From the UHGV virus genome UHGV-0234394: a DNA stretch of 36,353 bases. One strand, written 5' to 3'. Shown here in pieces: positions 8,339 to 35,128 of this stretch. The notes below the pieces were generated by a model that did not search any database, was not told where the DNA came from, and saw only the letters and a program-made list of their open reading frames with translations. Positions within the stretch are counted from its first letter, which is position 1, and the number at the start of each line of letters is the position of its first letter. A program made the position numbers and the translations under genes. Source of the DNA: a virus.

Positions 8339-8358
8339 CACGACAGAGTATGCCAGCA

Positions 8359-8766
8359 TTAAATATAATCTTCTTCGTAGTCGCTGATTAATTCATTGCC
8401 ATAATCAGACAGCAATTTCAAAGCAAAGGTAACTTCCTCAAGGGTAGCTATCCCCATTGCTGAAAACACCGTTAATTTAACCAGCAGCAGGGAGTTTGAA
8501 AGTTCGGAAGAGTTCATCATTAAAAATATTGATGCAGCCTGAAAAGCTGTGCGTTTATTCCCATCATGAAAGGCATGAGCCTTGGCTATACCAATCAAAT
8601 ACATAGCAGCCAGAGCATGAATATCATCAACCCCTTCATAGTAGTGTAGTGTCCTGACGCGATTTAAAGCACCTTCAAGTAGCCCGTCATTGGCATTTCC
8701 GCTCTGGGGTAAAGTTTCAGCATGGATACGTTCTACTTGTTCTTTTGACAAAAACACTATGTCCAT
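8359..8766 (-). CDS. Doc/Fic-family toxin (death-on-curing type)
   Basis: 135 aa with Doc-type motif HAFHDGNKRTA; start overlaps the stop of the upstream antitoxin gene; AT-rich. Confidence 0.8.
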   Translation of the reverse strand: MDIVFLSKEQVERIHAETLPQSGNANDGLLEGALNRVRTLHYYEGVDDIHALAAMYLIGIAKAHAFHDGNKRTAFQAASIFLMMNSSELSNSLLLVKLTVFSAMGIATLEEVTFALKLLSDYGNELISDYEEDYI

Positions 8767-9122
8767 CAGTTATCCTCAAGCTTTTTAATGATATCCGCAT
8801 GTTTTTCTCTTGTACGCTTCATTGCATCTTCAAAAGACAATCCTTTTTTTCTCTGTGCGACAAGAGCTGGATGACGTTTTTCCAGATCTCTCACTGCATT
8901 TATTAAGAGTGGTTGCTTCATTTTGTTTATTTGATCCCGCAGTTTTTTGGTTTTGCCAAGGACAGCCCGTATTTCAGGACTAAGATCAGAACCAGCAAGA
9001 ACAACATCCTTCCCTCCCTGCGCAGTGATAACGACACTGCCACCGGAAGAAAGGTAATCCAGAATTTCACTCAGGTTCTCACGAAATTCATCATCAGTTA
9101 CAGTTTTCATATTCATTTCCAT
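8766..9122 (-). CDS. Phd/YefM-like antitoxin
   Basis: 118 aa; N-terminal region (FRENLSEILDYLSSGGSVVITAQGGKDVVL) has the Phd/YefM pattern; first gene of the two-gene operon. Confidence 0.65.
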   Translation of the reverse strand: MEMNMKTVTDDEFRENLSEILDYLSSGGSVVITAQGGKDVVLAGSDLSPEIRAVLGKTKKLRDQINKMKQPLLINAVRDLEKRHPALVAQRKKGLSFEDAMKRTREKHADIIKKLEDN

Positions 9123-9197
9123 TATGCACGCCCATAACGTAAGTATAACGGCTTGTTGGGCAGTAATAACACCGCCATATTTTCATTTTATACACCG

Positions 9198-19697: not shown

Positions 19698-20059
19698 GTG
19701 CACGTTTTCTGGGGATGAACCCCGAAGCCACCGGCACGCTCAGCGACACGGACCATCTGTGGAACAGCGTGAGGGATATTCTGCTGACACCGCTCGCCAG
19801 CCGGGTGATGCGCCGGGAATACGGCAGCCTGCTGCCGGATTTGCTGGATGCACCGATGAATGCCACCACCCGCCTTCAGTGCATGAGTGCCGTGGTAATT
19901 GCCCTGACGCAGTGGGAGCCGCGCATCGCCCTGAATGCCGTTGATATTCAGTGGGAGGCGGGCGGAAAAGCCGTTATCACTCTCACCGGCACGCTGACAG
20001 AAAGCCTGGAAACCGTACAGAACACACTGACACTCAGGAGCGACAATGCCAGCCGTTGA
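19694..20059 (+). CDS. W: baseplate wedge protein W
   Basis: 121 aa; overlapping start/stop with V and J as in P2. Confidence 0.8.
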   Translation: MSARFLGMNPEATGTLSDTDHLWNSVRDILLTPLASRVMRREYGSLLPDLLDAPMNATTRLQCMSAVVIALTQWEPRIALNAVDIQWEAGGKAVITLTGTLTESLETVQNTLTLRSDNASR

Positions 20060-20942
20060 CCTGTCGGAACTGCCGACACCACAGATTATTGAAACGCCGG
20101 ATTTTGAAGTCATCCTGGCGGAGGTGAAAGAAAGCATGATTACGGCATTCCCGCAGACACAACAGGCTGCCGTCCGGTCAGCCATGGCGCTGGAGTCCGA
20201 ACCGCTCACGGTCATCGCTCAGGCATTTGCACTGCGTGAGTTGCTACTTCGCCAGCGAATTAATGAAGGGGCAGCGGCCTGTATGCTGAGCCATTCCACA
20301 GGTGACGACCTGGATAACCTCGCCGCCAACATGAACACCGCGCGACTGGTCATCACACCGGCCACGGACACCGCGGAGGCCGTCATGGAAAGCGACACAG
20401 CCCTGCGGCTGCGTGCACAGTCTGCGTTTGATGGCCTCAGCGTGGCCGGTCCCACCGGGGCGTATGAATATTTTGCCCGCAGTGCCAGCGGTCAGGTGGC
20501 GGACGCACGCGCTACCAGCCCCGCACCGGCGGAAGTGGTGGTGGCGGTGCTGTCCACGGAAGGCGACGGTACGGCGACCGAAGCACTCCTGACGACGGTC
20601 AGAAATGCGCTGAATGCCGAAGACGTTCGCCCGGTCGGTGACCGTCTGACGGTGCAGAGCGCAGAAATCATCCGGTATCAGATTGATGCCCGGCTTTACT
20701 TTTATCCGGGGCCGGAGTCGGAACCTATCCTGAATGCCGCCAGAAACAATCTGGAAACCTGGCTTGCCGAACAGGGCAAAATCGGTCGCGATGTGGCGCT
20801 TTCCGCCATCATGGCCGCGCTGCATGTTCAGGGCGTTCAGCGCGTGGAACTGACCAGCCCCGCACAGAATATTGTTATCAGTGATGTGCAGTCAGCGTAC
20901 TGCACATCGTTTTCGGTCAGCGCAGGGGGAACCAATGAGTGA
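20046..20942 (+). CDS. J: baseplate protein J
   Basis: 298 aa, close to P2 J length; position. Confidence 0.8.
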   Translation: MPAVDLSELPTPQIIETPDFEVILAEVKESMITAFPQTQQAAVRSAMALESEPLTVIAQAFALRELLLRQRINEGAAACMLSHSTGDDLDNLAANMNTARLVITPATDTAEAVMESDTALRLRAQSAFDGLSVAGPTGAYEYFARSASGQVADARATSPAPAEVVVAVLSTEGDGTATEALLTTVRNALNAEDVRPVGDRLTVQSAEIIRYQIDARLYFYPGPESEPILNAARNNLETWLAEQGKIGRDVALSAIMAALHVQGVQRVELTSPAQNIVISDVQSAYCTSFSVSAGGTNE

Positions 20943-21474
20943 ACCGTCACTTCTCCCCCCTTCAGCCAGCGATTTCATGCGCTGCGTGGAGCGGGGGGCT
21001 ACCCGGTTGTCAGCATTACCTGTCAGCCTTAATCAGCTCTGGGATCCTGACACCTGCCCGGTGGCCCTGCTGCCTTATCTGGCGTGGGCGCTGTCCGTGG
21101 ACAGGTGGGATCGTGACTGGACGGAAGAAACAAAGCGCCAGGTGATCCGTGATGCCTGGGCAATCCACCGCCATAAGGGAACCATCAGCGCCATCAGGCG
21201 TGTGGTTGAACCCTTTGGCTATGTCATTAACGTGACGGAATGGTGGGAAACCGGCGATCCGCGAGGGACTTTCCGGCTGGACATCGGTGTACTGGATACC
21301 GGTATCTCCGCTGCGACCTATACCGAGCTGGAGCGCCTCATCGATGATGCCCGCCCGGTGAGTCGCCATCTTACCGGATTAAATATTGTGCAGGACATTT
21401 ACGGGGATGTGTACGCCGGCGGGGCGGTATTTTGCGGCGACACTATTGAGGTTTATCCGGGAGAGGTTGTCTGA
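20935..21474 (+). CDS. I: tail protein I
   Basis: Track ORF 20872..21474; ATG at 20935 overlaps J stop; about 179 aa as P2 I. Confidence 0.75.
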   Translation: MSEPSLLPPSASDFMRCVERGATRLSALPVSLNQLWDPDTCPVALLPYLAWALSVDRWDRDWTEETKRQVIRDAWAIHRHKGTISAIRRVVEPFGYVINVTEWWETGDPRGTFRLDIGVLDTGISAATYTELERLIDDARPVSRHLTGLNIVQDIYGDVYAGGAVFCGDTIEVYPGEVV

Positions 21475-21476
21475 AT

Positions 21477-24323
21477 ATGAAATATGGTGCCATTATCACA
21501 GCGGCTGGCGCTGCCAGGCTTGCTGCAGCCACAACAGCAACAGGCCAGAAGCTGAACATCACTCACATGGCCGTGGGAGATGGTAATGGAAATCTCCCGG
21601 AACCATCGGCCTCACAGACCGCCCTGAACAATGAAGTCTGGCGCGGGACGCTGAATAAAATTACACAGAACAGCAAAGCGCCAAATCAGGTGATTGCGGA
21701 ACTGGTTATTCCTCCGGAAGTTGGCGGCTTCTGGATGCGGGAGCTGGGGTTGTATGACGACAGCGGAACCCTGATTGCCGTCGCCAATATGGCAGAAAGC
21801 TACAAGCCGTTACTCGCCGAAGGTTCGGGGCGCTCAATGGTCTGCCGCATGTTCATCATCATCAGCGATATGAACGCGGTGAATCTGTCAGTGGACAGCA
21901 GCGTCATTGCCGCAACACAGGAATATGTTAACGAAGCCATCTCCGGCCTGCACCGCGCCATCATTGATGATGTGGTTCTTCAGCATAAAGTTGTCCACGA
22001 TATTGACTACACCGGGATTTTTGACGGCGCGGATAAGATGAGCCAGGGGTTCTGTATCTGTGATACGCCGCAGGGAACCCGAATGTTTCTGCATCAGCCT
22101 GTATCGGGTGGCGTAAGGATTGTTGAAACGATATTTAACCCTGACGGAGAAAACGAAAACCCGACGGTCATTTCGTTTTCTCCCGTTTTCGCTGATATTG
22201 GTCACCAGAGTATCGGGGCTGTATGTGAAGACGATCGCGTGATGCTGTATACCCCGACCGCTGACGGCAAGGGTGTGAATATCATCAACTGGAATGGGGC
22301 TGACACCAGTCTGACAGATGTCACCCGTACGGAGATTTTCACCTCTGACTTTTTTACCGGGGATGAAATTATAACGGTGGCATTGTCGGCAGACGGAAGC
22401 CTGTTAATTGTTCAGTCAGGTGATGAGGCCGTCCATCTTCATTACAACAGGGATGATCGCCGCACAGTTTATGTTTTCGATCGCGCCTCTCTGACGTTTA
22501 AACACCGGATTTATCTGTCCACCCAGCCAATGGTGTCGCAGGCATTTCAGGGGATGGCCAGCGATGGTCATTATCTTTTTGCTTATTACGGTTATACAGG
22601 CGTATTTCTGACTCACCGCATTGTTGTATATAACCTGTCAACGGGCGAAGTTGTCAGACAGTTCAATGTGGATGGCGTTCGTGCCAGGTATGGTCGCCAG
22701 AAAATGCTGGGGAATGCAGAGCTGGGGTATCCCGTTTTGCAGGAAGCCGAAGGGCTGGCTCTCCATAACGGAAAACTGTATCTGCTCGATATGGATTTCT
22801 GGTGTCAGACAGCCGATGTGGTTTCTTTTGAGGGGGCATACTTTGCAGCACGTGCAACAAATTTTTCTGGCCGTTCCCCGGTGAATCCATCTTACTGGAC
22901 GCCTACAGCATATGGAACGGCGGCTGCAACGAAATATGATGCCACGAAGTCTTATACGTGTGGTGTGGCGACAAAACGCAGCAAAGCTGTGGTTTCCGTG
23001 GAGGCTTACGACGGCACAGGCTATCTGGTGGACTCCGGCGTGGCGTTTCCTGATAGCCATGCCAGCCTTTTTCTGAGTCCCAATGCTGTAAATATAGCCC
23101 TGTCACCCAATGAAGACTTCCAGGTGGCAGCCTATGAGCAGAATCTGCGCTCGCATCGCCCGTTATTTGAGGTCAGAAAGGAGGCTCCGGATACAGACAC
23201 TTCTGCTGCTGTTTTTCGTTTGTTCGGGGATGCGTTCCGAACCGGAGAATACACAGGCCGCTTCGTTCAGTGGAAACACCGCCTGAACGACGTGCACGAT
23301 TGTCTGGAAATACGCGCTGACGTGGATTTGTTGAGCGGTGGCGGGATTAACCTTTACTCAATGAACGATACTCAGTCGGCGGGACGCACAAGGCTTTATT
23401 GCACCGATGGCAGTGAAACCTGGTCTGTATTATTGAGTCCGGTCTCGCCGTCATTTCATCCCGACCAGGACAAGGCAATGAATCTGGGGTCATCGCCAAA
23501 TCGCTGGAATGTGGCATACCTGCAGGGCGTGAATATTAAATCGGATGACGAAACCCAGAAGCGCATGGCCATCAGCACCACGCTGAAGGCGGGAGCTTTC
23601 CAGGTATCAACAGCCGGGAATCTGGGTATTTATGACGATTCTGCTGACGCTTATGTAATTGCAGCCCGTAGTGACGGCACTGCATTCATGCAGATGGATA
23701 CAGATATTAACGGTGCATTCCGGCCATCGGTTAACAATACCAGCGACCTGGGTGCGCCCAACAAAGCATTCCGGAGCGTGTATCTCTGCAACTCGCCGAC
23801 CATTGTGTCGGATGCGACGTTAAAGGATACACCGCGCGATGCGACGGCAGCCGAAAACGCGGCATTTGCAGAAATAGCACGGCTTCCGGGCGTGTGGCGC
23901 TGGTTACAGAGAATTGAGGAGGAGGGCGAGGACGCGCGTCTGCACGCCGGGCCGACAGTCCAGGCCGCGATAGCCGTGATGGAGAAACACGGTCTGGACT
24001 GGCGGAAATACAGCGCATTTTGTCTGGATTCGTGGGAAGCGGAGGAGGCACAGTACGAAGATATACCGGAAGAGTATGAAGATATTCCGGTTCAGCCAGC
24101 GATTTATTCGGATGAAGGGGAGCTGTTGAGCGGGACAACCCGTGTGCTTACCCGACAGGCGGAAAGGGTTCTTGTTCGTCCTGCAACCGAAGCAGGAAGC
24201 CGTTATCGCTTCCGGAAAGAGGAGCTTCTCTGGTGGTGTCTGCGTGCTGTTGTCAGCCAGGTGGATGCGCTGACAGAGAGTATCAGCGCACTTACCCGCC
24301 GTGTTGATTTACTGGAGGAATAA
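21477..24323 (+). CDS. H: tail fibre protein (P2 H-like N-terminus) with divergent C-terminal region and apparent intramolecular chaperone domain
   Basis: N-terminal about 150 aa closely resemble P2 H (ELVIPPEVGGFWMRELGLYDDSGTLIAVANMAESYKP); C-terminal part contains SDATLK at codon 778 (nt 23808). Confidence 0.85.
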   Translation: MKYGAIITAAGAARLAAATTATGQKLNITHMAVGDGNGNLPEPSASQTALNNEVWRGTLNKITQNSKAPNQVIAELVIPPEVGGFWMRELGLYDDSGTLIAVANMAESYKPLLAEGSGRSMVCRMFIIISDMNAVNLSVDSSVIAATQEYVNEAISGLHRAIIDDVVLQHKVVHDIDYTGIFDGADKMSQGFCICDTPQGTRMFLHQPVSGGVRIVETIFNPDGENENPTVISFSPVFADIGHQSIGAVCEDDRVMLYTPTADGKGVNIINWNGADTSLTDVTRTEIFTSDFFTGDEIITVALSADGSLLIVQSGDEAVHLHYNRDDRRTVYVFDRASLTFKHRIYLSTQPMVSQAFQGMASDGHYLFAYYGYTGVFLTHRIVVYNLSTGEVVRQFNVDGVRARYGRQKMLGNAELGYPVLQEAEGLALHNGKLYLLDMDFWCQTADVVSFEGAYFAARATNFSGRSPVNPSYWTPTAYGTAAATKYDATKSYTCGVATKRSKAVVSVEAYDGTGYLVDSGVAFPDSHASLFLSPNAVNIALSPNEDFQVAAYEQNLRSHRPLFEVRKEAPDTDTSAAVFRLFGDAFRTGEYTGRFVQWKHRLNDVHDCLEIRADVDLLSGGGINLYSMNDTQSAGRTRLYCTDGSETWSVLLSPVSPSFHPDQDKAMNLGSSPNRWNVAYLQGVNIKSDDETQKRMAISTTLKAGAFQVSTAGNLGIYDDSADAYVIAARSDGTAFMQMDTDINGAFRPSVNNTSDLGAPNKAFRSVYLCNSPTIVSDATLKDTPRDATAAENAAFAEIARLPGVWRWLQRIEEEGEDARLHAGPTVQAAIAVMEKHGLDWRKYSAFCLDSWEAEEAQYEDIPEEYEDIPVQPAIYSDEGELLSGTTRVLTRQAERVLVRPATEAGSRYRFRKEELLWWCLRAVVSQVDALTESISALTRRVDLLEE

Positions 24324-24325
24324 TT

Positions 24326-24610
24326 ATGGACTTAACACCGGTGTTCCATGCACTTTGTGCGGTGGCCACTCAGTTTCTGGTGGGTCTTTTTACCGGAAAC
24401 TGGGCTTACGGAGCGATAGCCGGTTGCACGTTCTTCATTGCGCGTGAACACACCCAGGCAGAATATCGCTGGATTGAAATGTTCGGGCATGGCAGGCGTA
24501 TGAATATGCCGTGGTGGGGCGGTTTTGACCCACGAGCGTGGGATATGGCAAGTCTGATGGATTTTGCAGTGCCGGTGGTGGCATGTCTGCTGGTCTGGCT
24601 GGTCGTATGA
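24326..24610 (+). CDS. small membrane protein (94 aa) at the position of P2 Z/fun
   Basis: Track ORF starting 2 nt after H stop; two or three hydrophobic segments; followed by an intrinsic terminator. Confidence 0.55.
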   Translation: MDLTPVFHALCAVATQFLVGLFTGNWAYGAIAGCTFFIAREHTQAEYRWIEMFGHGRRMNMPWWGGFDPRAWDMASLMDFAVPVVACLLVWLVV

Positions 24611-24622
24611 CGTAGCAGGAAA

Positions 24623-24647
24623 CAGGGGGATTTGCCCCTGTTTTTTT
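24623..24647 (+). terminator. intrinsic terminator
   Basis: Stem cagggg/cccctg followed by T7. Confidence 0.6.
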
Positions 24648-24778
24648 GTTCAGAATGCAGCCTTCACCATTCGTCTCTAATCGTATTCAGTAATTCGCCC
24701 GCAGAAACAAACTAAAATTCATCCCCCACATCACGCCACTGAAAGCAGACGGTAAACTCCAGATTTTCAAACCAGCGT
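24648..24778 (-). pseudogene. degraded duplicate of the 3' end of tail gene U
   Basis: About 130 bp, roughly 75-80% identical by eye to 25429-25560 (3' end of intact U) in direct orientation, including an identical 21-mer ttcagtaattcgcccgcagaa; in-frame stops in the copy. Confidence 0.6.
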
Positions 24779-25093
24779 CAGAAGTATTTAAATGGCACCA
24801 GATGTAATATGCAGGCGATTAATATGGTGTGCTTAAAGATCATAAAAGCGGGCAACATTAAAACTCTGGGCTGTGTAAATTACCGCCACTCATAATCAGA
24901 GATGAAAACAGAATTAAACTGGCGGCGTGGATTGTATACATAAAATAAGTTCAGTTGTTGACTTTCACTTCCGTGAGTTGATGAGGGTTATTACAATACA
25001 CCGGTATGATCTCTCCTCCTTAAAAGGGAGGACTTTTCAGAACGCAGAAATTATTTATAATCCCGTAGTGTTCTACACATGCCAACATTCTTT

Positions 25094-25118
25094 GCCCGCC
25101 CCGTGCGGGCTTTTTTTT
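25094..25118 (+). terminator. intrinsic terminator in a non-coding island
   Basis: gcccgc-cccgt-gcgggc followed by T8. Confidence 0.6.
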
Positions 25119-25208
25119 GCCATAAAGACACAGTAACAAACAGAATTGTAATCAGAGCAATAAAATCATGAAAAACATTTTCATTGATGACGATAACAAT
25201 TAAAAATA

Positions 25209-25238
25209 TTGCATTAAATGATTCCCGTTCAATATAAT
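25209..25238 (+). promoter_or_regulatory. sigma70-like promoter (TTGCAT-18-TATAAT)
   Basis: -35 at 25209-25214, -10 at 25233-25238. Confidence 0.45.
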
Positions 25239-25244
25239 CCCCCT

Positions 25245-25305
25245 GCAACCAGAAAAATTAAATCTTCACACAATGCATGTTGCCCTCTTTATGAGGGCTT
25301 TTTTA
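25245..25305 (+). ncRNA. candidate small RNA (about 60 nt) between promoter and terminator
   Basis: Promoter above followed about 45 nt later by hairpin gccctc/gagggc (25282-25298) and T-run; no credible ORF with SD. Confidence 0.3.
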
Positions 25306-25397
25306 TTTCCCGAATATCACCATTGCCATCATCGGGCGATTTATATATAGTCAGAATGTATTGACAACATTTTGCTTCTTTTCCATGAAGGCCATAA

Positions 25398-25427
25398 GGG
25401 AGTGCTTTTTACACTCCCTCTTTTTTT
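25398..25427 (+). terminator. intrinsic terminator abutting the 3' end of U
   Basis: gggagtg-loop-cactccc followed by TCTTTTTTT. Confidence 0.5.
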
Positions 25428-25429
25428 AT

Positions 25430-25894
25430 TCAGAATGCCGCTGTCGCCATTTTGTCTTTAAGCGTGTTCAGTAATTCGCCCGCAGAAGCAGACTGAAACC
25501 TCTCCCTCATATCCTCATCACACCGCTGAAAGCTGATGGAGAACTCAATCTTTTTTGCCTTTCCGTAACGATCCAGTTCGGAGCGGGTGGTCTGTAATCC
25601 CGTAATCACGTACATTCCGTAAATCTGCCCCGTGCCATCAATCAGCGGCCAGGGACATCCTGTGTAGGCCTGGGTGTTCAGTAGTGTCAGCGACACCTCA
25701 CCGCCGGTAATTTCCGGGTACAGCAAACCGGACAGCGTGATCTGGTCATCACCTGCACCGATATACTGCCAGGCTGCAGAGCGGTTAATGCGCTCATTTT
25801 TCACATGTCGCCATGTTTTGCTCTGCTGGATCTGCTGATGCGGCAGCGTGCGCAGCTCAAAAACAAACATGCCGTAGATCATCATCATGGTCAT
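25430..25894 (-). CDS. U: tail protein U
   Basis: 154 aa; size and position next to the tape measure as in P2. Confidence 0.75.
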   Translation of the reverse strand: MTMMMIYGMFVFELRTLPHQQIQQSKTWRHVKNERINRSAAWQYIGAGDDQITLSGLLYPEITGGEVSLTLLNTQAYTGCPWPLIDGTGQIYGMYVITGLQTTRSELDRYGKAKKIEFSISFQRCDEDMRERFQSASAGELLNTLKDKMATAAF

Positions 25895-25900
25895 GACTCC

Positions 25901-28741
25901 TCAATCTTTATCGTAAAAACTGCCACGCCCGGCACGGGCGCGCCGTTCCATTTCTGCCCTGACCATTTCACCGACCAGTTTCGCCAGTTCGCGGGGATTC
26001 TGCGTAACAACGTTATGCAGATGAACATGAATTTCACCACCAAATCCGGAGGCAACAGGCTCCCGGTTACGGGAAGTTACAGGAACTGATGCCACTGGAG
26101 ATCGTATGGCCTCCGCCACCGGGCGGGAGCTGGCCGCAACAACAGGGACCAGCGCCGGAGGCAGCGGAGCCGGGACCGCGGGTGTGATATTAATTGCGGG
26201 GGGCTTACTGACCTGCGCAATCTTCCGCTCCTGCCACTCCCCACGAACAGCAAGTGCGCGGGGCAGGTTCTTAAAGACAATATCGCCGGGGCCAATGCGT
26301 TTTTTCGTCTCATCAACCAGCTTACCTGTGTTATCAGCAATTTTGCTGAGTCTGCGCAGCGTACCGGTATTGCTGTCTGTGAGCGGTTTATTGTCTTTGG
26401 GGTTATCACCTCCGGTGCCATTGCCATTTTCCACAGGCTTCGGCGGATTGATTTTCGCCAGGTCCCCCTGAAGCAAGGCAACCTTGTCCTGAAGAATGGC
26501 CGCACGCTGTGCGTCTTCGATTTTCTTGCGCGCCCTTTCCGCTTCATCCGGAAGGACGCCAAGTTTTTCAAGTATCCACGCCAGCGTATCCAGCAGCATT
26601 TTTGCAGGTGTCAGAACAAGCTGTAACGCACCGCCAAGAACGTTACCGAATATCTCGCCAGCACTGGTACATTTATCCAGCGTTTCCTTGCTGGACTCCA
26701 TCGGTGACAGCAGCGATTTAAACCAGTTAAACACCTGGCTGATCCCGCTCCCGATTGCGTCAAAAACAGGACCAAACCGTTCAAAGGTTTCGCGCAACGG
26801 GGTCAGCCTTTCCATAATCCCGCTGAACACCCCGGCAAAAAATGCCCTGATGGGATCCCAGTATTTCCAGATAAGAACGGCAGCTCCGGCAAGCGCAGCC
26901 ACGATAAGACCAACCGGACTGAACAACGCCCCGATAGCGCCTCCCAGCAAAGAAACAGAACCCGTCACCATTCCCCACAGCGCAGGCAACACCCTGATGA
27001 CATTCATTGACCGGGTAAGAATGTCGAAACCAAGACGCAGGGTGGCCAGCTTCCCGTAAAGCCCCCCAATAACCAGCGACAACGAGCCAATCGTTGCTGT
27101 CATTGCCAGCAACGCACCGCCTGCTATCAGTAGCTGGCGCGTCAGTACCGGATGGGCCTGCGCCAGCGAGGTGATTTTTTCAAGCACCCGCGTGAGCCAC
27201 TGCGTGACAGAACGCAGCGGACCGTCAACCAGATCACTGATGCGAATACGAAGACCTTCCCATGCGCTGTCGAGATTTTTCAGGTCCCCATCAAGATTAT
27301 CGGCCATTACTTTTGCAACGCGATCGGCCTCTCCCCTTGCCCCCTGCAATTCTCTGGTCAGTTTTTGCAGTTCTCCTGAACCAGCCGCCGCAACAAGCGT
27401 CTGCAAACCAACGAACGCCTCTTCTCCGGCGATGTCCTTAAAGAAGGAGACCTGGTCCACCTGTCCGTATTTTTGTGTCGCCTTATAGAGATCAAGCAGC
27501 ACATCCTCCATCGGGCGCATTTTGCCTCTGGCGTCAGCAACTGACACCCCCAGCTCTTTCAGTGCATCAGCCGCAGCTTTTGGCGGTGATGCAAGGCGGG
27601 ACAGACTTGCGCGCATGGCCGTACCAGCATCGCTTCCGCGAAGACCATTATTGGCAAGCATCCCGGCCATGGCCGCCGCTTCTTCAAGACTGATACCAAG
27701 TTTTGCAGCAACCGGACCGGTATACTTCATGGTTTCGCCCAGCGCGCGTAAATCAGTATTGGTCCGGGTAAATGCTGCTGTCAGCGTATCACCCACCCGG
27801 TCCATTTGATCGGCTGTCAGGTTGAACTGTGTGAGGATATTGGAGCCTATATCAGCCGTCTCGCCGAGTTCGACGCCACCTGCCAGCGCCATATTAAGAA
27901 CACCGGGCAATGCGGCCTGAATGGCCTGCGGAGTAAAACCAGCCATTGCCAGAAAGCTCTGCCCACTGGCGGCATCACTCGCAGTAAACTGTGTTTCAGA
28001 GCCAAGTTTTAACGCCTGCTCACGCAGCGCCTTAAACTGCGGGCTGTTTTTGTCGATTCGCGTCAGTGCCTGAACGCGGGACATCTCTTTGCCGAACCCG
28101 ATCGCAGGCTGCAAAAAACGCCCGACAGCATAGCCGCCCGCCGCTGCCGCACCAATTGCCAGCGCACCACCTGTTTTCAGTTTTCCCGCGGTTTCCTGCG
28201 CGCGCGAATACCGCTCACGCGCCCGCGTTACACGCGCAAGCGCCTGCCGTTCGCGTTCAAGCTGGTTGTTGTACTGTTCGGTGCGTCTGATGGCCTGCTG
28301 GATGGTGTTATCGCTGCCTGTCAGGGAAATGCCGTGGCGTTTCAGCTCTCCGCCAAGTTCCCGCATTTTCTGAATTTCCCGTGTGCGCGATTCATTCAGG
28401 CGTTCAAGCCGGGTGCTTAACTGCTGCATCAGCTTTTGTTGTTTTTCGCTGAGCACTGTACCCGTGCGTTGTAACTGATTAAGGGCGTTAAGCTGGCGTC
28501 GTGCTTTCACGATACCCGCATCCGCTTTACTGACAGCGTCGCGGGCGCGCTCAAATGAACGCGCCTGACGCTCGAGATTTTTGATCGCCCCCTGCGTTCG
28601 CTGGATGGAGTCACCAAACTGCCCCATCAGGCGGCGGGCGTTTTCGGCAGGCCGGGTCAGCCTGTCAACGGCGCTGAAAGCGACCCGGATATCAAGAGTC
28701 TTCATTGTCTGCATTCCCGCTGCGAAGTGCCGCCCGCTCAC
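25901..28741 (-). CDS. T: tail tape measure protein (P2 T-like)
   Basis: 946 aa, Ala/Gly/Leu-rich with helical heptad-like regions and a hydrophobic central segment; start not refined. Confidence 0.85.
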   Translation of the reverse strand: MSGRHFAAGMQTMKTLDIRVAFSAVDRLTRPAENARRLMGQFGDSIQRTQGAIKNLERQARSFERARDAVSKADAGIVKARRQLNALNQLQRTGTVLSEKQQKLMQQLSTRLERLNESRTREIQKMRELGGELKRHGISLTGSDNTIQQAIRRTEQYNNQLERERQALARVTRARERYSRAQETAGKLKTGGALAIGAAAAGGYAVGRFLQPAIGFGKEMSRVQALTRIDKNSPQFKALREQALKLGSETQFTASDAASGQSFLAMAGFTPQAIQAALPGVLNMALAGGVELGETADIGSNILTQFNLTADQMDRVGDTLTAAFTRTNTDLRALGETMKYTGPVAAKLGISLEEAAAMAGMLANNGLRGSDAGTAMRASLSRLASPPKAAADALKELGVSVADARGKMRPMEDVLLDLYKATQKYGQVDQVSFFKDIAGEEAFVGLQTLVAAAGSGELQKLTRELQGARGEADRVAKVMADNLDGDLKNLDSAWEGLRIRISDLVDGPLRSVTQWLTRVLEKITSLAQAHPVLTRQLLIAGGALLAMTATIGSLSLVIGGLYGKLATLRLGFDILTRSMNVIRVLPALWGMVTGSVSLLGGAIGALFSPVGLIVAALAGAAVLIWKYWDPIRAFFAGVFSGIMERLTPLRETFERFGPVFDAIGSGISQVFNWFKSLLSPMESSKETLDKCTSAGEIFGNVLGGALQLVLTPAKMLLDTLAWILEKLGVLPDEAERARKKIEDAQRAAILQDKVALLQGDLAKINPPKPVENGNGTGGDNPKDNKPLTDSNTGTLRRLSKIADNTGKLVDETKKRIGPGDIVFKNLPRALAVRGEWQERKIAQVSKPPAINITPAVPAPLPPALVPVVAASSRPVAEAIRSPVASVPVTSRNREPVASGFGGEIHVHLHNVVTQNPRELAKLVGEMVRAEMERRARAGRGSFYDKD

Positions 28742-28958
28742 GCCAGCTAACCACTTCGCCGGGCGTCATCATGAAGATTTCGGCGGGCGACCAGTTAAAA
28801 ATGGCGGCGATATCTGCCACCAGATCTTCGATGTGCTCAAAGCACACCAGGGTGATTACGCTGCCGTCTCCTGCACGCTCTTCGCGCCAGAGTCTGGCTC
28901 GCTCATAAAATTTACAGCCACAGCGCACAACTGAATAAAATCGCGTGACGACATTTTT
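28692..28958 (-). CDS. E' frameshift extension of the tail assembly chaperone (E+E')
   Basis: Open in the -1 frame relative to E from 28958 downward; only entry point is the A7 run at 28954-28960 inside E. Confidence 0.5.
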   Translation of the reverse strand, partial: KNVVTRFYSVVRCGCKFYERARLWREERAGDGSVITLVCFEHIEDLVADIAAIFNWSPAEIFMMTPGEVVSWRERAALRSGNADNEDS

Positions 28959-29230
28959 TTAATCATCACTTCATCCAGTCGTGGCGAGGTCACGCGAGGC
29001 AACAGCGTGAACATGGTATCCGCTTTCAGATTCAGCACATCAGACAGCGACAGACCACGCAGGGATCCAGCCTGTTCAATAGCCCCGGTGATCTCCACAT
29101 ACGTGATTTTTTCGCCACCACGCTCAATTGGTCGGGTCAGTTTTACGCCACGTTCGACAGCCATAACCTCACCTGCCGTCACATCATCCGCCACGGTGTT
29201 ATTCCGGGTTTCAGTATCGATGTCTTTCAT
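28856..29230 (-). CDS. E: tail assembly chaperone (P2 E-like)
   Basis: 124 aa between tail tube and tape measure genes; contains the A7 slippery run near its 3' end. Confidence 0.7.
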   Translation of the reverse strand: MKDIDTETRNNTVADDVTAGEVMAVERGVKLTRPIERGGEKITYVEITGAIEQAGSLRGLSLSDVLNLKADTMFTLLPRVTSPRLDEVMIKKMSSRDFIQLCAVAVNFMSEPDSGAKSVQETAA

Positions 29231-29285
29231 CAGTTGTCTCCTTTTCAGTCAGAGGCGACGCACTGCGCCGCCTGCATATTACTTA

Positions 29286-29798
29286 TCAGCCAAGCCCAAG
29301 CGCGGAACGGATGCGGTCAGGCACAATGTCCTTGCCGTCCTTCCGGTAGATGTGGTTCAACAGGTCGATTTCCCACAGCGGGCGATCGTTAACGCTCAGC
29401 TTGTAGTAGGTGTTTTTGACAGCGTAAGTGTGTGATGTGGCTTCGCCCTGTTTGGCTTCCCCCATATCAATTTCCGTCACACGCCCGCGCATCTCGATTT
29501 CATACAGATCGCTTTCTGCATCGGTGTAGTATTCACCCGCAAAACGCAGCAGCGTGCCGTCAATCGTGCCGCCATATTTAAGGAACAGCGCACGAACAGC
29601 TCCCCCCATGACAAAACTCGCATCAAGTGCGGAGTCGTCCAGACCGAGATCAATACTTACTGCCCCCATCATGCCACCACCACGATAGCTGTCGGTTTTG
29701 CGCGTCAGTTTGGGCGGCGTGACGGATGTCACTTTACCCACTTCGTTTTCACCATCCACAAACAACGTAAAAAAGCGAAGATGTTTTGGTACAGCCAT
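29286..29798 (-). CDS. FII: tail tube protein (P2 FII-like)
   Basis: 170 aa; position after sheath gene. Confidence 0.8.
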   Translation of the reverse strand: MAVPKHLRFFTLFVDGENEVGKVTSVTPPKLTRKTDSYRGGGMMGAVSIDLGLDDSALDASFVMGGAVRALFLKYGGTIDGTLLRFAGEYYTDAESDLYEIEMRGRVTEIDMGEAKQGEATSHTYAVKNTYYKLSVNDRPLWEIDLLNHIYRKDGKDIVPDRIRSALGLG

Positions 29799-30982
29799 CA
29801 GGCACCTCCCAGCACCGCAAATGCGGGACCAAAGAATTCATCAGTAAACGACTGGTAAAGCTCCATGTCTTCCAGTGGCGGAACGGGCGTATATTTGTAG
29901 CGAATACGCACACGTCCCTGACGTAAATTCGTGGTGCCGTTATCCACCACGTCATACCAGCACTCCGCGCCAATCAGTTTCCCGGCAGTAACCAGCGAAT
30001 CCAGTTTTGCCCTGATGGCGCTGATAACATCCTTCACGTTCGCAGGTGTCAGTGGACTGTCGATGGTTTCAAACTGCGCTTCCGCAATTGAATCAGCCAG
30101 CACCTGTGCGGTTCGGGTATACACCTCAAAGATGTAGGCGTTCGTTTCCGGTGTGCGGTTGCCCCAGAAGCGGAACCCGTTGCGACGAATAATGGTCGTG
30201 ATTTCTTTGTTGTTGAGGCTGTTGGCATCGCTGTCTTCGGCCTGCAACGACCAGAACACATGCCTGGACATTCCCAGCACATTTTTAACCGGAACGTTGG
30301 ACAGCGATTTGTGCCAGCCCTGCTCATGGTCAATGTACGCACGAAGGCCGCACGCATAAGCAGGCGCGGGGAACGTTTCGTTTTTGCCACTTTTCGGGTT
30401 GTAGGCGATGAAGTCCGGCCATAAGAGCATCACCTCACGTTCGTTGAATTTCTGGCGGTAGGTAATCGCCTCAGCCATCGTGTTACAGCCGTGACATGAG
30501 GCATACACAAACGCGCGCAGTTTACCTGCAATCACGCACAGGGATTTTGTTACAGCCTCCGTGTCCAGCTCCGGCGCGGCCAGAATACGCGGACGGTATC
30601 CGATGCTTTCATCCTGCTCTGCAACAAGCAGCGCATACATCCCCGTATAGCTGCCGTCATCCTCAGAACCACCGATAACCAGTTGATCCTGCGTCTTTCC
30701 GTCTTCTTCTTTGTGTTCAGCCACGCGAACGACGATCACCTTTGTGCTCACCTGGTCTGCGATGGCCTTAAGCGCACGATAAAGCGTCCCCGTTGTCCCG
30801 CATTTTCCCAGCACGTCATTGACGCGGGTCAGCAGTGTGGGCTTATTCAGCGGGAACAGCTTCGCGTCCGCATCATCCGCCGTTGCCACGATACCGATAA
30901 CGCTGGAATCAACATCGTTAATCGCTGTTACCAGGTCGGTATTTTCCGTAACACGGGCACCATGAAAACGAGTTTCACTCAT
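29798..30982 (-). CDS. FI: contractile tail sheath protein (P2 FI-like)
   Basis: 394 aa; extensive resemblance to P2 FI (KLRAF, WPDF, EQGWHK, LIRR-GFRFWGNRT, YTPVPPLE motifs). Confidence 0.9.
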   Translation of the reverse strand: MSETRFHGARVTENTDLVTAINDVDSSVIGIVATADDADAKLFPLNKPTLLTRVNDVLGKCGTTGTLYRALKAIADQVSTKVIVVRVAEHKEEDGKTQDQLVIGGSEDDGSYTGMYALLVAEQDESIGYRPRILAAPELDTEAVTKSLCVIAGKLRAFVYASCHGCNTMAEAITYRQKFNEREVMLLWPDFIAYNPKSGKNETFPAPAYACGLRAYIDHEQGWHKSLSNVPVKNVLGMSRHVFWSLQAEDSDANSLNNKEITTIIRRNGFRFWGNRTPETNAYIFEVYTRTAQVLADSIAEAQFETIDSPLTPANVKDVISAIRAKLDSLVTAGKLIGAECWYDVVDNGTTNLRQGRVRIRYKYTPVPPLEDMELYQSFTDEFFGPAFAVLGGA

Positions 30983-31139
30983 AGCTTCAGCCCCTTGTAT
31001 CCGTTAAATGATTCGGCAACAATCATCACCCACCACGCGCGTAATCTCACCCCTGCGCCGTTCTTCCGACCCAGAGACAACAAAAAGCAGTAACCCCCTC
31101 CGCACGCACATGCGACCATGCCGCACAGGGAGGGAACAG

Positions 31140-32249
31140 ATGACCGACACCACCATGCAATTGCTCAGTCAGAGCACAGACCCCGTGAAAATGCCGGATT
31201 TTGATATTCTCGCGGAGGGTAAAACGCTGTCAGGCGTGGCAGAGCGCCTGATGAGCCTGTCACTGACCGACAACCGGGGATTTGAGGCGGACCAGCTCAC
31301 CATCACGCTGGATGATGCGGATGGTCAGTTGCAGCTACCGCCACGGGGCGCGCGCCTGACGGTTCTCATTGGCTGGAAAGGAGAACCGCTGACAGAAAAA
31401 GGCACTTACATTGTTGATGAAATCGCTCACGAAGGACCGCCGGACAGGCTGACTGTTTCAGCCAGAAGCGCAGATTTTCGGGATGAATTTAACGTTAAAC
31501 GTGAGGTGTCCTGGCATGATGTGACCGTTGAGCGTGTGGTATCCGCCATCGCTCATCGGTATGGTCTGAAACCGCAAATCAGCGAAATGCTGATGGATAT
31601 CGAAATCGACCACGCCGACCAGACCGAAGAAAGCGACATGTCCTTCCTTACGCGCATGGCGGAAATGCTGGGCGCAATCACCACGGTAAAAAGCGGTAAT
31701 CTGTTATTCATCATGCCCGGCGGTGGCGTGAACGCGCAGGGCCAGCCGTTGCCATCGTTTGCCATCACACGCAGCAGCGGCGATCGCCATCAGTTCCGCA
31801 TTGCTGACCGCGAAGCGTATACGGGGGTACGCGCTTACTGGCTTGATCTTAATTACGGGAAAAAGAAAAAAGTCAGCGTGAAACGCCGCAAACCGCCAAA
31901 ACCCAAAAAGGAGAAAAGCAGCAGCCGTGAAGGTGATTATATGGAAGGCGCGGAAGGCAATGTGTTTGTGTTACGCAAGACCTATCAGAACGAACAGGCA
32001 GCAAGACGCGCAGCGGCGGCAAAGTGGCAGCAGCTACAACGCGGAGCCGCATCATTTTCCATCACGCTGGCGCGTGGACGTGCAGAACTCTACCCCGAAA
32101 TGCATGGCACGGTAACAGGATTTAAAAGCGAGATTGATAATCAGGACTGGATTATTGCGAAAGCCGAGCACACCATTGATAACAGTGGCTTTACCACGCA
32201 GCTTGAGCTTGAAGCAAAAATTCCGGAATGGATCGTAGAAACAGAATGA
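31140..32249 (+). CDS. D: tail/late-control protein D
   Basis: Track ORF 31008..32249; ATG at 31140 with GGAGGG upstream; about 369 aa; position before ogr as in P2. Confidence 0.8.
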   Translation: MTDTTMQLLSQSTDPVKMPDFDILAEGKTLSGVAERLMSLSLTDNRGFEADQLTITLDDADGQLQLPPRGARLTVLIGWKGEPLTEKGTYIVDEIAHEGPPDRLTVSARSADFRDEFNVKREVSWHDVTVERVVSAIAHRYGLKPQISEMLMDIEIDHADQTEESDMSFLTRMAEMLGAITTVKSGNLLFIMPGGGVNAQGQPLPSFAITRSSGDRHQFRIADREAYTGVRAYWLDLNYGKKKKVSVKRRKPPKPKKEKSSSREGDYMEGAEGNVFVLRKTYQNEQAARRAAAAKWQQLQRGAASFSITLARGRAELYPEMHGTVTGFKSEIDNQDWIIAKAEHTIDNSGFTTQLELEAKIPEWIVETE

Positions 32250-32371: not shown

Positions 32372-33157
32372 TCAATCACCTATGTGATTACGTTCTATAT
32401 ATCTTACAATCTTCTCTAAAGATTCAAATCCCCACCTCTGCATAGCATGTGGGAATTCTGTATATTCATAATCTTCTATGGTGAGATCCCATGTACTTTT
32501 CTTGAATTCACACTGATATAATCGCACAGTCTTGTTTAAAACCAACCCTTCTAACACACTGCTTTTCTTAATGATTTTGTCAATGTCTTTATTGTTAATC
32601 CCAATGTAGATAGCTGTTACCGAACTTAAATCAGTTATCTTGTCAATTAAAATATTTTCTTGCTTTTGTAATAGCCCCACTCGCTTTATTATTCTAACTT
32701 CTTCTTCATATTTCCAATGCAATGATTTAGTAAGCAATAATTTACTAATTACATCAGCGCTATAAATGTTTTCTTGACTGATTTTTAGTTTACTTTTTAT
32801 TCGACTCTCTAAATAATTAATGTCACCTTTCTGTGCCGTAATTAGGCATTTTTCTTCATCATCAAACCCTGCCCTTTCTGTGTCAATTGCTACAACAAAC
32901 CCCTGATGTTTATCAGCATAATGTGACCACATCAGTACATTGAGAGGATTTTTAGAAAGGCATAAGCAGGCAACATTTTGATTGATCTCCCCCCTCATAG
33001 CTAATGGTTCAAGCGATTCACCATCTAATGAAAGTTCATAGCCATAGCTTTCAAAAGGATCATTAAACTCACTATATGGAGTGAATTTTATAGAGATGTA
33101 ACCATCTTTAAAAAATCGTTCCAATGATGTCTTATCTATATATTTATACAGAATCAT
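32372..33157 (-). CDS. AT-rich accessory protein of unknown function (about 261 aa), N-terminal LYKY motif
   Basis: Track ORF 32372..33208 begins with TTG; first ATG gives MILYKYIDKTSLERFF; strongly AT-rich versus flanking D and ogr; convergent with D. Confidence 0.6.
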   Translation of the reverse strand: MILYKYIDKTSLERFFKDGYISIKFTPYSEFNDPFESYGYELSLDGESLEPLAMRGEINQNVACLCLSKNPLNVLMWSHYADKHQGFVVAIDTERAGFDDEEKCLITAQKGDINYLESRIKSKLKISQENIYSADVISKLLLTKSLHWKYEEEVRIIKRVGLLQKQENILIDKITDLSSVTAIYIGINNKDIDKIIKKSSVLEGLVLNKTVRLYQCEFKKSTWDLTIEDYEYTEFPHAMQRWGFESLEKIVRYIERNHIGD

Positions 33158-33352
33158 AATATATTCAGAATTAATTATAGGTGTTATCAGTATACAGTAC
33201 TTCAACAAGTAGATGTAAAGATCCCATTTAAACGTTCCTCCTCAATACGCGGATTAAACAAATTAAAGCATCTTACTCAAAATGGACCATCAGTTGGATT
33301 TAGAGCCAACACAACCTAGAATAGCGGCAGCACCACGTTAAGGGAGGTCGCT

Positions 33353-34194: not shown

Positions 34195-34392
34195 ATGACG
34201 CAAAATGTACGATGCAAAAATTGCAACAAACTACTTGCCCGCGCCTCATTTCACTACATTGAAATAAAATGTCCGCGCTGCAAAACACTTAACCAGATAA
34301 CGAGAGCCATCGAGCACCCCACACACATGAGGAGTTATGACCGTGGGGATCGCAATCCAGCACCAACCAGCACATACACCGGAACACACTAA
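34195..34392 (+). CDS. com: Com-like zinc-finger translational regulator
   Basis: MTQNVRCKNCNKLLARASFHYIEIKCPRCK...EHPT closely parallels Mu Com (RCKNCNKLL, IEIRCPRCK, EHPT); AAGAGG SD; 3' end overlaps the methyltransferase start. Confidence 0.8.
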   Translation: MTQNVRCKNCNKLLARASFHYIEIKCPRCKTLNQITRAIEHPTHMRSYDRGDRNPAPTSTYTGTH

Positions 34393-35128
34393 GGTTTATC
34401 AGACTGACAATGCCACGCTCTGTCGTGGGAATGCGCTGGAAATATTGCCGCTGATTGAGCCAGAAAGCATTGATGCCTTAATCACTGACCCGCCTTACAG
34501 TTCGGGTGCGACACACAAGGCCGGACGCACCAACCAGGGCAGCCATGCAAAATATCTGAACGGCGAGAACCTTCACCGCTTTGATGGGTTCGCGGGTGAA
34601 AACATGGACGCCCGTTCGTGGGCTTACTGGACACAATTATGGATGGCACAGGCACACCGCGCAGTCAGGCCGGGCGGTTATGCCCTGGTATTTACTGACT
34701 GGCGACAACTACCAGCTTTAACCGATGCGTTTCAGGCCAGTGGCTTTACATGGCGCGGCATCATTGCGTGGAACAAAGGGAGGGGGTCACGAACACCACA
34801 TACCGGGTATTTCCGGCATCAGTGCGAATACATCGTCTGGGGCAGCAAAGGCCATTTAGATAAATCGCCTTCGGGACCGTTCGACGGCTGCATGACGTTC
34901 CCGGTTATCTCGTCAAAGAAAATGCACCCGACCGGAAAACCAGAAGAACTAATGGCGGAACTGGTCAGGACTGTGAATAGTGGCGGAACAGTCCTTGATC
35001 CTTTTATGGGGTCAGGGACAACGGGTGTGGCTGCACTGAAAGCAGGACGCAAATTTATTGGTATAGAAACCAGTGATCATTATTTTGATGTAGCAACACA
35101 ACGGCTCAAAACGGCGATCGAACCATAA
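34337..35128 (+). CDS. DNA methyltransferase, beta-class (DPPY before FxGSGT), N6-adenine or N4-cytosine
   Basis: ITDPPYSS near the N-terminus and LDPFMGSGTTGVAAL near the C-terminus; alternative GTG start at 34343 has better SD spacing. Confidence 0.8.
   Translation: MTVGIAIQHQPAHTPEHTKVYQTDNATLCRGNALEILPLIEPESIDALITDPPYSSGATHKAGRTNQGSHAKYLNGENLHRFDGFAGENMDARSWAYWTQLWMAQAHRAVRPGGYALVFTDWRQLPALTDAFQASGFTWRGIIAWNKGRGSRTPHTGYFRHQCEYIVWGSKGHLDKSPSGPFDGCMTFPVISSKKMHPTGKPEELMAELVRTVNSGGTVLDPFMGSGTTGVAALKAGRKFIGIETSDHYFDVATQRLKTAIEP

Follow-up and report, generated by a model that had tools for sequence, protein, structure and literature searches.

The tail fibre gene of UHGV virus genome UHGV-0234394, a P2-type E. 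coli prophage whose 36,353 nucleotides form the whole stretch analysed here (the window), raises the question of how a P2-type fibre is folded when the tail fibre assembly gene gpG does not follow it. The gene is located at 21477..24323 on the plus strand and, according to the ORF list, is an intact ORF for a tail fibre or receptor-binding protein of 948 amino acids; the codon of residue n begins at 21477+3(n-1) and the stop codon ends at 24323. The product is very probably a chimeric, chaperone-autonomous receptor-binding protein that joins a native gpH anchor to a horizontally acquired cassette. This reading is based on the identity of the domains, the motif, the predicted fold, the mosaic junctions and the loss of gpG. 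No paper on this particular P2-type fusion was found in literature searches.

Anchor and C-terminal chaperone domain

The fibre is matched over residues 2-947 by phrog_19921, a 'tail spike protein', and the RefSeq entry for the identical gene, WP_001546051.1, is named 'phage tail protein'. Neither the fibre nor orf94, the ORF behind it, has an NCBIfam match. The N-terminal baseplate anchor (residues 2-148, positions 21480..21920, plus strand) is of the P2 gpH type, as had been predicted: Pfam places PF12571, Phage_tail_fib, on residues 2-148 with an E-value of 3.6e-54, and the anchor is 65% identical to residues 26-158 of P2 H. The homology to P2 H ends at residue 156. PF03406, the C-terminal repeats and tip usual in H homologues, is carried by nearly all other PF12571 proteins found and has no Pfam match in the fibre.

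The C-terminus consists of an intramolecular chaperone, or Peptidase S74, domain (residues 778-948, positions 23808..24323, plus strand), which is identified by PF13884, PDB matches, conservation and fold. This 171-residue piece opens with SDATLK and runs to the stop codon, with the plus-strand codons of Ser778 and Lys783 at 23808-23810 and 23823-23825; position 23808 coincides with the start named in the original prediction. The PF13884 (Peptidase_S74) match covers residues 778-840 and profile positions 1-58 of 58 with 38.1 bits, against a gathering cutoff of 22 bits, and an E-value of 1.9e-9, and it begins exactly at Ser778. A phmmer search against PDB sequences returned fibre and spike proteins only (4uw8, 7y5s, 6eu4, 9vvr, endoNF 3gw6, and GA-1 3gud), among which T5 pb1, 4uw8, aligns with fibre residues 700-948, spanning the stalk and the chaperone, with an E-value of 4.2e-16. 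Ser778 is opposite T5 position 1264 (crystallised as the S1264A mutant) and Lys783 opposite Lys1269; the two residues also align with the 911 and 916 columns of endoNF. All 58 aligned homologues have D779 and K783, and each of S778, H823, G825, and R913 is kept in at least 90% of them. The homology to T5, Kp7, and AS12 starts 30-70 residues upstream of Ser778. An AlphaFold2 monomer model of residues 700-948 has a pLDDT of 85.7, and its top ten Foldseek matches in the PDB are all 3gw6, 4uw8, and 3gud, with E-values from 1e-12 to 3e-6; the related MyRF ICA domain is the next match. The models are monomers, in contrast to the intertwined trimer that forms the real unit. The original prediction had assigned the C-terminal residues, about 170, to an S74-type Ser/Lys motif and had proposed an HMM search and a structure prediction of residues 700-948; both agree with it, the latter matching only intramolecular chaperone domains in its top ten. 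Judged from sequence statistics, the domain match is far beyond chance, whereas the bare six-residue motif alone would not be. The S-D-x-x-x-K pattern is common, with several unrelated occurrences in the homologue set, however, domain statistics, conservation, and predicted fold independently concur. The proposal that SDATLK is a chance motif on a C-terminus of another kind is already refuted by the PF13884 match, the PDB alignments, and the fold search, and it retains practically no probability.

The L-shaped tail fibre pb1 of T5 (4uw8; PMC4690869) is the best sequence match to the stalk and chaperone, and is the model for trimer-dependent autocleavage that unmasks a receptor-binding tip. [quoted passage not shown] The Ser-Lys dyad occupies the same columns in both proteins and the C-terminal helix region 'AG.(R/H)Y.FR.EEL' is also common to both, however, in the siphovirus T5 the anchor is of another kind and the receptor-binding domain folds as a 'bullet' instead of a propeller. 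The chaperone has 171 amino acids here and 133 in T5, and an acidic stretch of ~40 residues is inserted in the fibre domain but not in T5 pb1. Arg1250 and Asp1239 of T5 have been proposed as accessory residues that complete the active site, and Arg1250, contributed by the neighbouring chain, ties cleavage to trimer formation (PMC4690869). In a pairwise alignment with T5 the Arg1250 column holds Ala764 and the Asp1239 column holds Asn753. Arg766 is located two residues past Ala764, in a register that, on a reading of the pairwise alignments, is that of the AS12 gp42 tailspike, 6eu4. The best structural match of the predicted model is the chaperone of the K1F/K1E endosialidase (3gw6), the type example of S74, with a Foldseek E-value of 1e-12. 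The Ser/Lys positions are the same, as seen with the S911A mutant chain, and there too a beta-propeller-containing spike precedes the chaperone, however, the endosialidase propeller is a six-bladed GH58 domain and the one modelled here is five-bladed.

The receptor-binding region and its transfer between anchors

The receptor-binding region (residues 160-777, positions 21954..23807, plus strand) models as a five-bladed beta-propeller followed by more beta domains and a stalk that leads to the putative cleavage site. The predicted structure is most like the receptor-binding protein of S. aureus phage phi11, and 'propeller receptor-binding protein' is a better term for the module than 'classical fibre tip'. 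Phi11 Gp45 has a five-bladed propeller platform within the receptor-binding protein, as in the fibre model, and binds wall-teichoic-acid GlcNAc on behalf of a Gram-positive siphovirus (5efv; PMC4901313). In contrast to the fibre, Gp45 has no S74 domain, and the two proteins are only ~13% identical. For the propeller, similarity of fold extends to five-bladed glycoside hydrolases (GH43, GH32, and GH62 among them), and Glu423 is invariant and Glu425 near-invariant, in an E-x-E arrangement, across 81 homologues. A regular-expression search found an SD...K motif in 63 of 140 distant propeller homologues, mostly ~110-170 residues from the C-terminus.

It is conceivable, though rather doubtful, that the propeller belongs to an uncharacterised coliphage family of glycan-processing enzymes, rather than being a passive binder, and that the cassette is a 'plug-and-play' host-range unit. 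The cassette could serve as such a unit because it carries its own chaperone on board. This would explain the four tail types that it has reached (P2-like, Mu-like, N4-like, and T7-like) as well as the successive displacement of chaperone-dependent fibres and of the invertase switch in the lineage. An endosialidase (GH58) identity was rejected, and sialidase activity is not supported, since the PF12219 End_tail_spike match is sub-threshold (14.8 bits against a cutoff of 25, E-value 0.031, 26 residues). Searches of the literature found no receptor data for Pollock gp75, a relative described below. O-antigen specificity is not inferable from the hosts, which span records labelled O25b:H4-ST131 and E. 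coli B, a rough strain.

The left recombination junction is located at about residues 158-162 (21948..21961, plus strand) at the motif HRAIIDDVVLQHKV and is marked by identity breakpoints and a drop in GC content from ~0.60 to ~0.50. Near-identity to a prophage with a Mu-like tail begins at 21948 and near-identity to E. coli B at 21961, and at the protein level identity sets in at residue 159 for Pollock and at residue 149 for P0001. The module is found on four different anchors: in the defective P2 prophage of E. coli B, in the Mu-like-tail prophage, in Pollock, and in T7-type fibres. The E. coli B fibre (WP_000104717.1, 952 amino acids) has the same layout of PF12571-type anchor, propeller, and S74 domain, with ~99% identity over residues 161-928 and no gpG. 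It differs in an anchor that is only ~60% identical, in its last ~20 residues, and in its degraded prophage, where the fibre gene is followed not by orf94 but by a GT2 glycosyltransferase gene of opposite orientation. Identity of the module is ~98% for E. coli B and for the Mu-like-tail prophage. The tail spike gp75 of Pollock, an N4-like member of the Schitoviridae, shares the receptor-binding region and the chaperone with 78% amino acid identity over residues 159-947 and has no adjoining chaperone gene. Its anchor, on a podovirus, is of the TSP1/Gp66 type (PF18668), a terminator comes next, and orf94 is absent. Protein identity is ~50% in T7-like podophages. No Tfa is annotated beside the module in the three contexts examined, which are E. 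coli B, the Mu-like-tail prophage, and Pollock. Among 5,426 complete E. coli genomes searched, the prophage was found in 58, including records labelled O25b:H4-ST131, and the module in 87.

The replaced segment and the relic of gpG

The phages P88 (Xuanwuvirus) and 500465-2 (Gemsvirus) are called the closest by their adjacent tail genes, as they are 92-95% identical at the nucleotide level over the U-to-D tail genes. They share the tail-gene backbone with the prophage, including the FI-U block on the opposite strand. A rearrangement of this minus-strand FI-FII-E-T-U block with respect to P2 was considered and rejected, since this arrangement is usual in P88, 500465-2, P884B11, and their relatives. 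The right-side chromosomal flank of 500465-2, with TagO, flk, and fabB, is that of the prophage copy in strain Eco889, which is 99.5% identical to the window over 10286-32259 and 100% identical over 20000-25500. Between gpI and gpU, P88 and 500465-2 have H, G, an inverted G'/H' segment, and a DNA invertase, so that their fibres are Tfa-dependent with an invertible alternative tip, whereas here there is one fixed self-chaperoning module. The right edge of the replaced segment is in the 3' end of the tail gene gpU (25430..25894, minus strand; 47% identical to P2 U), where the nucleotide match with P88 and 500465-2 picks up again at 25502. The gene content of the closest phages, together with the recurrence of residues ~160-928 at ~98-99% identity on other anchors, substantiates the swapped module that had been proposed.

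Searches for gpG in the window gave no intact gene. Six Tfa proteins (P2 G, a second P2 G, and the G and G' proteins of P88 and of 500465-2) produced nothing significant by tblastn against the whole window, and Pfam identified no Tfa family in ten otherwise unassigned or poorly characterised window ORFs. Together these searches, with six Tfa queries and over ten ORFs, gave no sign of a hidden gpG elsewhere in the window. Additionally, the RefSeq annotation of the same prophage in Eco889 lists no Tfa gene. At 24778..24975 on the plus strand, blastn and tblastn located a decayed relic that derives from gpG and the 3' end of the ancestral fibre gene. Its first part (24778-24869, plus strand) holds the end of H and the first ~15-18 codons of G, and its second part (24874-24975, plus strand) is what remains of a Tfa C-terminus and contains an in-frame stop. 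The relic is 80.6% identical to the H/G junction of a P2 record (blastn E-value 1e-13), and a Tfa fragment from strain TUM9803 matches it with 59% identity over 34 amino acids and a stop codon inside (tblastn E-value 2e-8). The predicted absence of gpG is thus functionally right, with the refinement that a pseudogene stub persists. An intramolecular chaperone and a separate Tfa have been described as alternative solutions in sister phages (PMC11990801). A third P2-family fibre, HP1-like and with both PF12571 and PF13884, has no recognisable Tfa downstream either.

The gene that follows the fibre is orf94 (24326..24610, plus strand; phrog_1443), a small predicted membrane protein with hydrophobic N- and C-terminal segments and no Pfam match. 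A terminator-like hairpin and T-run, found by consensus scan only, is located just past it at 24625..24649 on the plus strand and is likely where the V-W-J-I-H late transcript terminates. The stretch 24611-25430 is filled with remnants and AT-rich spacer DNA. The start of orf94 only 2 nucleotides after the fibre stop, its co-transcription up to the terminator-like site, and its travelling with the module in an unrelated Mu-like-tail prophage (21948-24601, 97.6% identical) are what would be expected if the S74 domain were present in a system that is not self-sufficient, with orf94, or an unrecognised prophage or host factor, as the real assembly factor. This is highly improbable: orf94 is hydrophobic and probably a membrane protein, unlike any known fibre chaperone, and the module is found without it in Pollock, where a terminator is next, and in E. 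coli B. A lambdoid side tail fibre that lacks S74 precedes orf94 in 78 of 80 viral loci, and TUM9803 synteny suggests that orf94 is a leftover of an earlier lambdoid-type cassette. On these grounds orf94 was rejected as a substitute chaperone and is probably hitch-hiking cargo.

General decay, in a defective prophage or with a catalytically dead chaperone, is another account of the loss of gpG and would make the gene a fossil. A near-identical module is located in the degraded P2 prophage of E. coli B, where the portal, tube, and D genes are truncated, and because that prophage is defective the presence of the gene is no proof of function. The T5 accessory active-site residues are not matched column for column, and remnants and spacer fill 24611-25430. 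However, the fibre ORF and the P2 structural homologues checked (I, FI, FII, E, T, U, and D) can be aligned along most or the whole of their sequence, intact late genes are annotated in the Eco889 copy, and the fibre gene is 98.7-100% identical at the nucleotide level across dozens of genomes and frameshift-free in the copies examined. The Ser/Lys dyad and the other conserved chaperone residues are intact, and decay is limited to gpG, the sole gene made redundant. The fossil explanation is improbable, and a self-chaperoning fibre remains the preferred reading.

Proposed maturation and its meaning

The proposed mechanism of maturation has residues 1-~158, the native P2-family gpH anchor, plugging the trimer into the baseplate, and residues ~160-928 as the acquired cassette of propeller platform and beta domains, short stalk, and S74 chaperone. 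By analogy to T5 pb1 and the K1F endosialidase, the three chaperone domains would trimerise first and template the stalk and the receptor-binding fold. In a correct trimer Ser778, activated by Lys783, would cut the chain just before Ser778. The mature fibre would then comprise residues 1-777 with an exposed tip, after release of a 171-residue fragment. Because the folding help is built in, gpG would have become dispensable and decayed to a stub, and with the invertible G'/H' segment and the invertase gone, the phage would have a single fixed receptor specificity set by the imported module. Trimer-dependent autocleavage at Ser778, independence from other chaperones, and an altered host range would be expected of such a fibre.

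The locus is an ordinary instance of a well-known phage trick and leaves the current view of S74 domains and phage mosaicism unchanged. It is also a clean natural case in which a self-chaperoning receptor-binding cassette makes a dedicated assembly gene redundant. The gain of the cassette coincides with the loss of the whole invertible host-range switch, and the gpG relic is a molecular record of the replacement. Since the module moves between four tail architectures with no partner chaperone, it may be a convenient donor for host-range engineering of phages and tailocins.

Fibre gene and C-terminal chaperone domain

The fibre gene is an intact ORF (21477-24323, plus strand) that encodes 948 residues, with the final base of its stop codon at 24323; that it is a dead relic is unlikely. 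The GC content falls from ~0.60 in the baseplate genes to ~0.50 inside the fibre gene. Pfam assigns aa 2-148 to PF12571, the phage tail-collar fibre N-terminal family (E 3.6e-54), and over its whole length the protein falls in phrog_19921, labelled "tail spike protein" in PHROGs. The original prediction of a Peptidase_S74 domain starting at 23808 agrees with the Pfam result for aa 778-840, where the entire PF13884 profile ("chaperone of endosialidase") is matched at 38.1 bits (E 1.9e-9) against a curated cutoff of 22 bits. Position 23808 is exactly the start of the Ser778 codon (21477 + 3 × 777), and the C-terminal 171 residues open with SDATLK.

In a sequence search of PDB chains with aa 700-948, every match was to a fibre or spike protein that has an intramolecular chaperone. 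The matches are T5 pb1 (4uw8, E 4.2e-16), the Klebsiella Kp7 fibre (7y5s), the Acinetobacter AS12 tailspike (6eu4), 9vvr, the K1F endosialidase chaperone (3gw6), and the GA-1 neck appendage (3gud). The AlphaFold2 model of the same residues has a pLDDT of 85.7, rising above 90 all through the chaperone, and its fold is that of the expected domain: the ten best PDB matches are all the chaperone domains 3gw6, 4uw8, and 3gud (E 1e-12 to 3e-6), followed by the eukaryotic MyRF ICA domain and nothing significant beyond.

Fibre Ser778 aligns with position 1264 of T5 pb1, which is Ala in the S1264A crystal mutant, and Lys783 aligns with Lys1269. In T5 pb1, the S1264A mutation blocks autoproteolysis, Lys1269 is proposed to activate the serine, residue 1263 is the last of the mature fibre, and fibre that stays uncleaved fails to compete with the phage for the receptor (PMC4690869). 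Arg1250 from the neighbouring chain and Asp1239 have been placed at the T5 pb1 active site as accessory residues (PMC4690869). As a caveat, the pairwise alignment puts these opposite fibre Ala764 and Asn753; on our reading of it fibre Arg766, two residues past Ala764, is in the same register as the arginine in 6eu4. Across 58 aligned homologues D779 and K783 are invariant, and at least 90% share S778, H823, G825, Y845, W853, and R913; the chance that SDATLK is a coincidental motif is negligible.

Receptor-binding region and carriers of the module

The receptor-binding region, aa 160-777, has 144 detectable relatives in a library of 1.8 billion proteins, and a structure model derived from 81 of these is of high confidence (pLDDT 87, pTM 0.78). 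Judged from this model, the region is a propeller-platform receptor-binding protein rather than a P2-type fibre tip. The propeller may bind a glycan alone or cleave it too, as the model fits either. GA-1 gp12, itself S74-bearing, shows weak sequence similarity to the region (23% identity, E 1e-15). Glu423 is invariant in the alignment and Glu425 is present in at least 90% (E264 and E266 in the numbering of the aligned segment). An SD...K motif occurs somewhere in 63 of 140 distant propeller homologues, in many at ~110-170 residues from the C-terminus, which indicates that the pairing of propeller and chaperone is old and common.

Nucleotides 21960-24323 are present in 87 of 5,426 complete E. 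coli genomes; 58 of the 87 have this prophage arrangement, some of them in records labelled O25b:H4-ST131. The module of E. coli B and ATCC 11303 lies within a defective P2 prophage, where the protein is ~60% identical to the fibre in the anchor and ~99% identical over aa 161-928, with the last ~20 residues differing. There the fibre gene is followed by a GT2 glycosyltransferase gene on the opposite strand and no gpG. In E. coli B, this gene and a small hypothetical gene (locus L008, 8581-9977, opposite strand, downstream of the fibre) occupy the Z/fun position of P2, and the glycosyltransferase may modify the receptor, as a lysogenic-conversion function that goes with the receptor-binding module.

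Strain SW070919 has the module joined to the N-terminus of a Mu/SfV-like tail fibre (protein cluster P0001, 609 members), and the block 21948-24601, which includes the small downstream gene orf94, is 97.6% identical. Gp75 of the N4-like phage Pollock has a TSP1/Gp66-type anchor, 78% identity over aa 159-947, and a terminator directly after the gene. T7-like podophages (R4596 and others; cluster P0042) carry a ~50% identical module behind a T7 gp17-type anchor. More distantly, an HP1-like myovirus fibre (cluster P0041) has the same PF12571 and PF13884 architecture, with no recognisable Tfa downstream. No annotated tail-fibre assembly gene stands beside the module in the three neighbourhoods inspected (E. 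coli B, SW070919, and Pollock).

Replaced segment and prophage context

The right-hand tail genes U, T, E, FII, FI, and D have 92-95% DNA identity to P88 (Xuanwuvirus), 500465-2 (Gemsvirus), P884B11, and others. In these phages the gpI-gpU interval holds H, G, inverted G' and H' tip, and a DNA invertase, and is an invertible host-range switch. In contrast, nothing of this set is left in the window, in which tblastn found no invertase, and nucleotide identity to P88 picks up again only at 25502, within the 3' end of U. This replacement, together with the presence of the same module on other anchors, bears out the proposal of a swapped receptor-binding module. The left-hand baseplate genes are a different mosaic block, with ~70% nucleotide identity to P88 and protein identity nearer P2.

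FI, FII, E, T, and U (25430-30983, minus strand) are encoded on the other strand from H and gpD (31008-32249, plus strand), unlike in P2, where all are co-directional. A local rearrangement was rejected and the layout is a clade trait, since P88, 500465-2, P884B11, and ten further phage records share it.

The same prophage in strain Eco889 is 99.5% identical to window 10286-32259. It does not align over 8224-9196, an interval where Eco889 has a parM fragment. In the window (8359-9122, minus strand), the gene for a Phd/YefM-like antitoxin (118 aa) is directly followed by that for a Fic/Doc-family protein (135 aa, PF02661, E 3.5e-11), and the pair looks like toxin-antitoxin cargo between the replication and portal genes. 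The AT-rich right end (GC 0.36-0.44) encodes a DUF2971 protein (32372-33208, minus strand) and an N6/N4 DNA methyltransferase (34337-35128, plus strand), whereas Eco889 has hok/gef, a RES-domain protein, and TagO; the cargo region therefore varies among otherwise near-identical prophages. The gpD ORF is 413 aa in the window and is recorded in Eco889 as a 266-aa product with a small overlapping pseudogene, probably a difference of start site or annotation and not damage.

The gpG relic and fibre assembly

A six-frame tblastn search of the entire window with P2 G, a second P2 G, and the G and G' proteins of P88 and 500465-2 gave no significant Tfa match. Among ten window ORFs that were poorly characterised or had no other assignment, Pfam detected no Tfa family (the matches were Fic/Doc toxin, Phd-like antitoxin, DUF2971, DNA methylase, and others), and the RefSeq annotation of the Eco889 prophage contains no assembly protein. 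The predicted lack of gpG thus holds for an intact gene, and only a relic of ~200 nt is left. Nucleotides 24778-24869 are 80.6% identical (E 1e-13) to the H-end/G-start junction of a P2 record and read as ~15 final H codons, a stop, and then 'MQAINMVCLKIIKAGNIKTL...' versus 'MMHLKNIKAGNAKTL...'. The next stretch (24874-24975) has an in-frame stop and aligns with the C-terminal portion of a Tfa fragment found in strain TUM9803 (59% over 34 aa, E 2e-8). This relic (24778-24975) shows that gpG was once present and has since decayed.

The 94-codon orf94 (24326-24610, plus strand; phrog_1443, "unknown function") starts 2 nt after the fibre stop and has a terminator-like hairpin at its 3' side. Its product is small, with hydrophobic N- and C-terminal segments. 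That orf94 or another hidden helper assists fibre assembly is very improbable: in 78 of 80 viral loci orf94 follows a lambdoid side tail fibre without S74, usually with a second small ORF (~92 aa) between. These lambdoid fibres have no annotated Tfa. A role for the small hydrophobic protein as fibre chaperone was rejected, and cargo is the best reading of orf94. A distant orf94-like sequence (68% nucleotide identity) lies ~2.2 kb downstream of the fibre gene in E. coli B.

In a P2-like prophage of TUM9803, gpU is preceded by the C-terminus of a lambdoid-type fibre, the two small ORFs, a truncated Tfa, and the same spacer; window 24314-25888 is 80.6% identical to this stretch. The simplest history is a two-step replacement, in which a lambdoid-type cassette with the small ORFs would have displaced the ancestral H-G fibre, truncating G, and the propeller-chaperone cassette would later have displaced the lambdoid receptor-binding part. 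The disrupted TUM9803 fibre gene (locus L090, 2351-5153) comprises P2-type N-terminal and lambdoid "head spike fiber" C-terminal fragments, both annotated as pseudogenes, with the two small ORFs and a Tfa fragment of 70 aa behind them. The locus resembles an intermediate step in cassette replacement, or a parallel one.

The fibre is very probably a chimeric, self-chaperoning receptor-binding protein. Its S74 domains would trimerise and then template folding of the stalk and propeller region, after which the Ser778/Lys783 dyad would cut the chain before Ser778, releasing the S74 domain and leaving a mature fibre of 777 residues. The folding autonomy conferred by the built-in chaperone would explain the decay of gpG. 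The domain identity, motif, fold, junctions, and loss of gpG are direct results, and analogy with T5, K1F, and similar systems would predict cleavage, folding that needs no other factor, and an altered host range. S74 chaperones are established, as are their transfer between families of phages and their role in place of a separate Tfa (PMC4690869; PMC11990801), and the exact fibre protein is already present in RefSeq and belongs to a PHROG annotated as tail spike. No specific description of a P2-type fibre/S74 fusion was found in the literature. This case adds two things, the relic of gpG and the displacement of the invertase switch.
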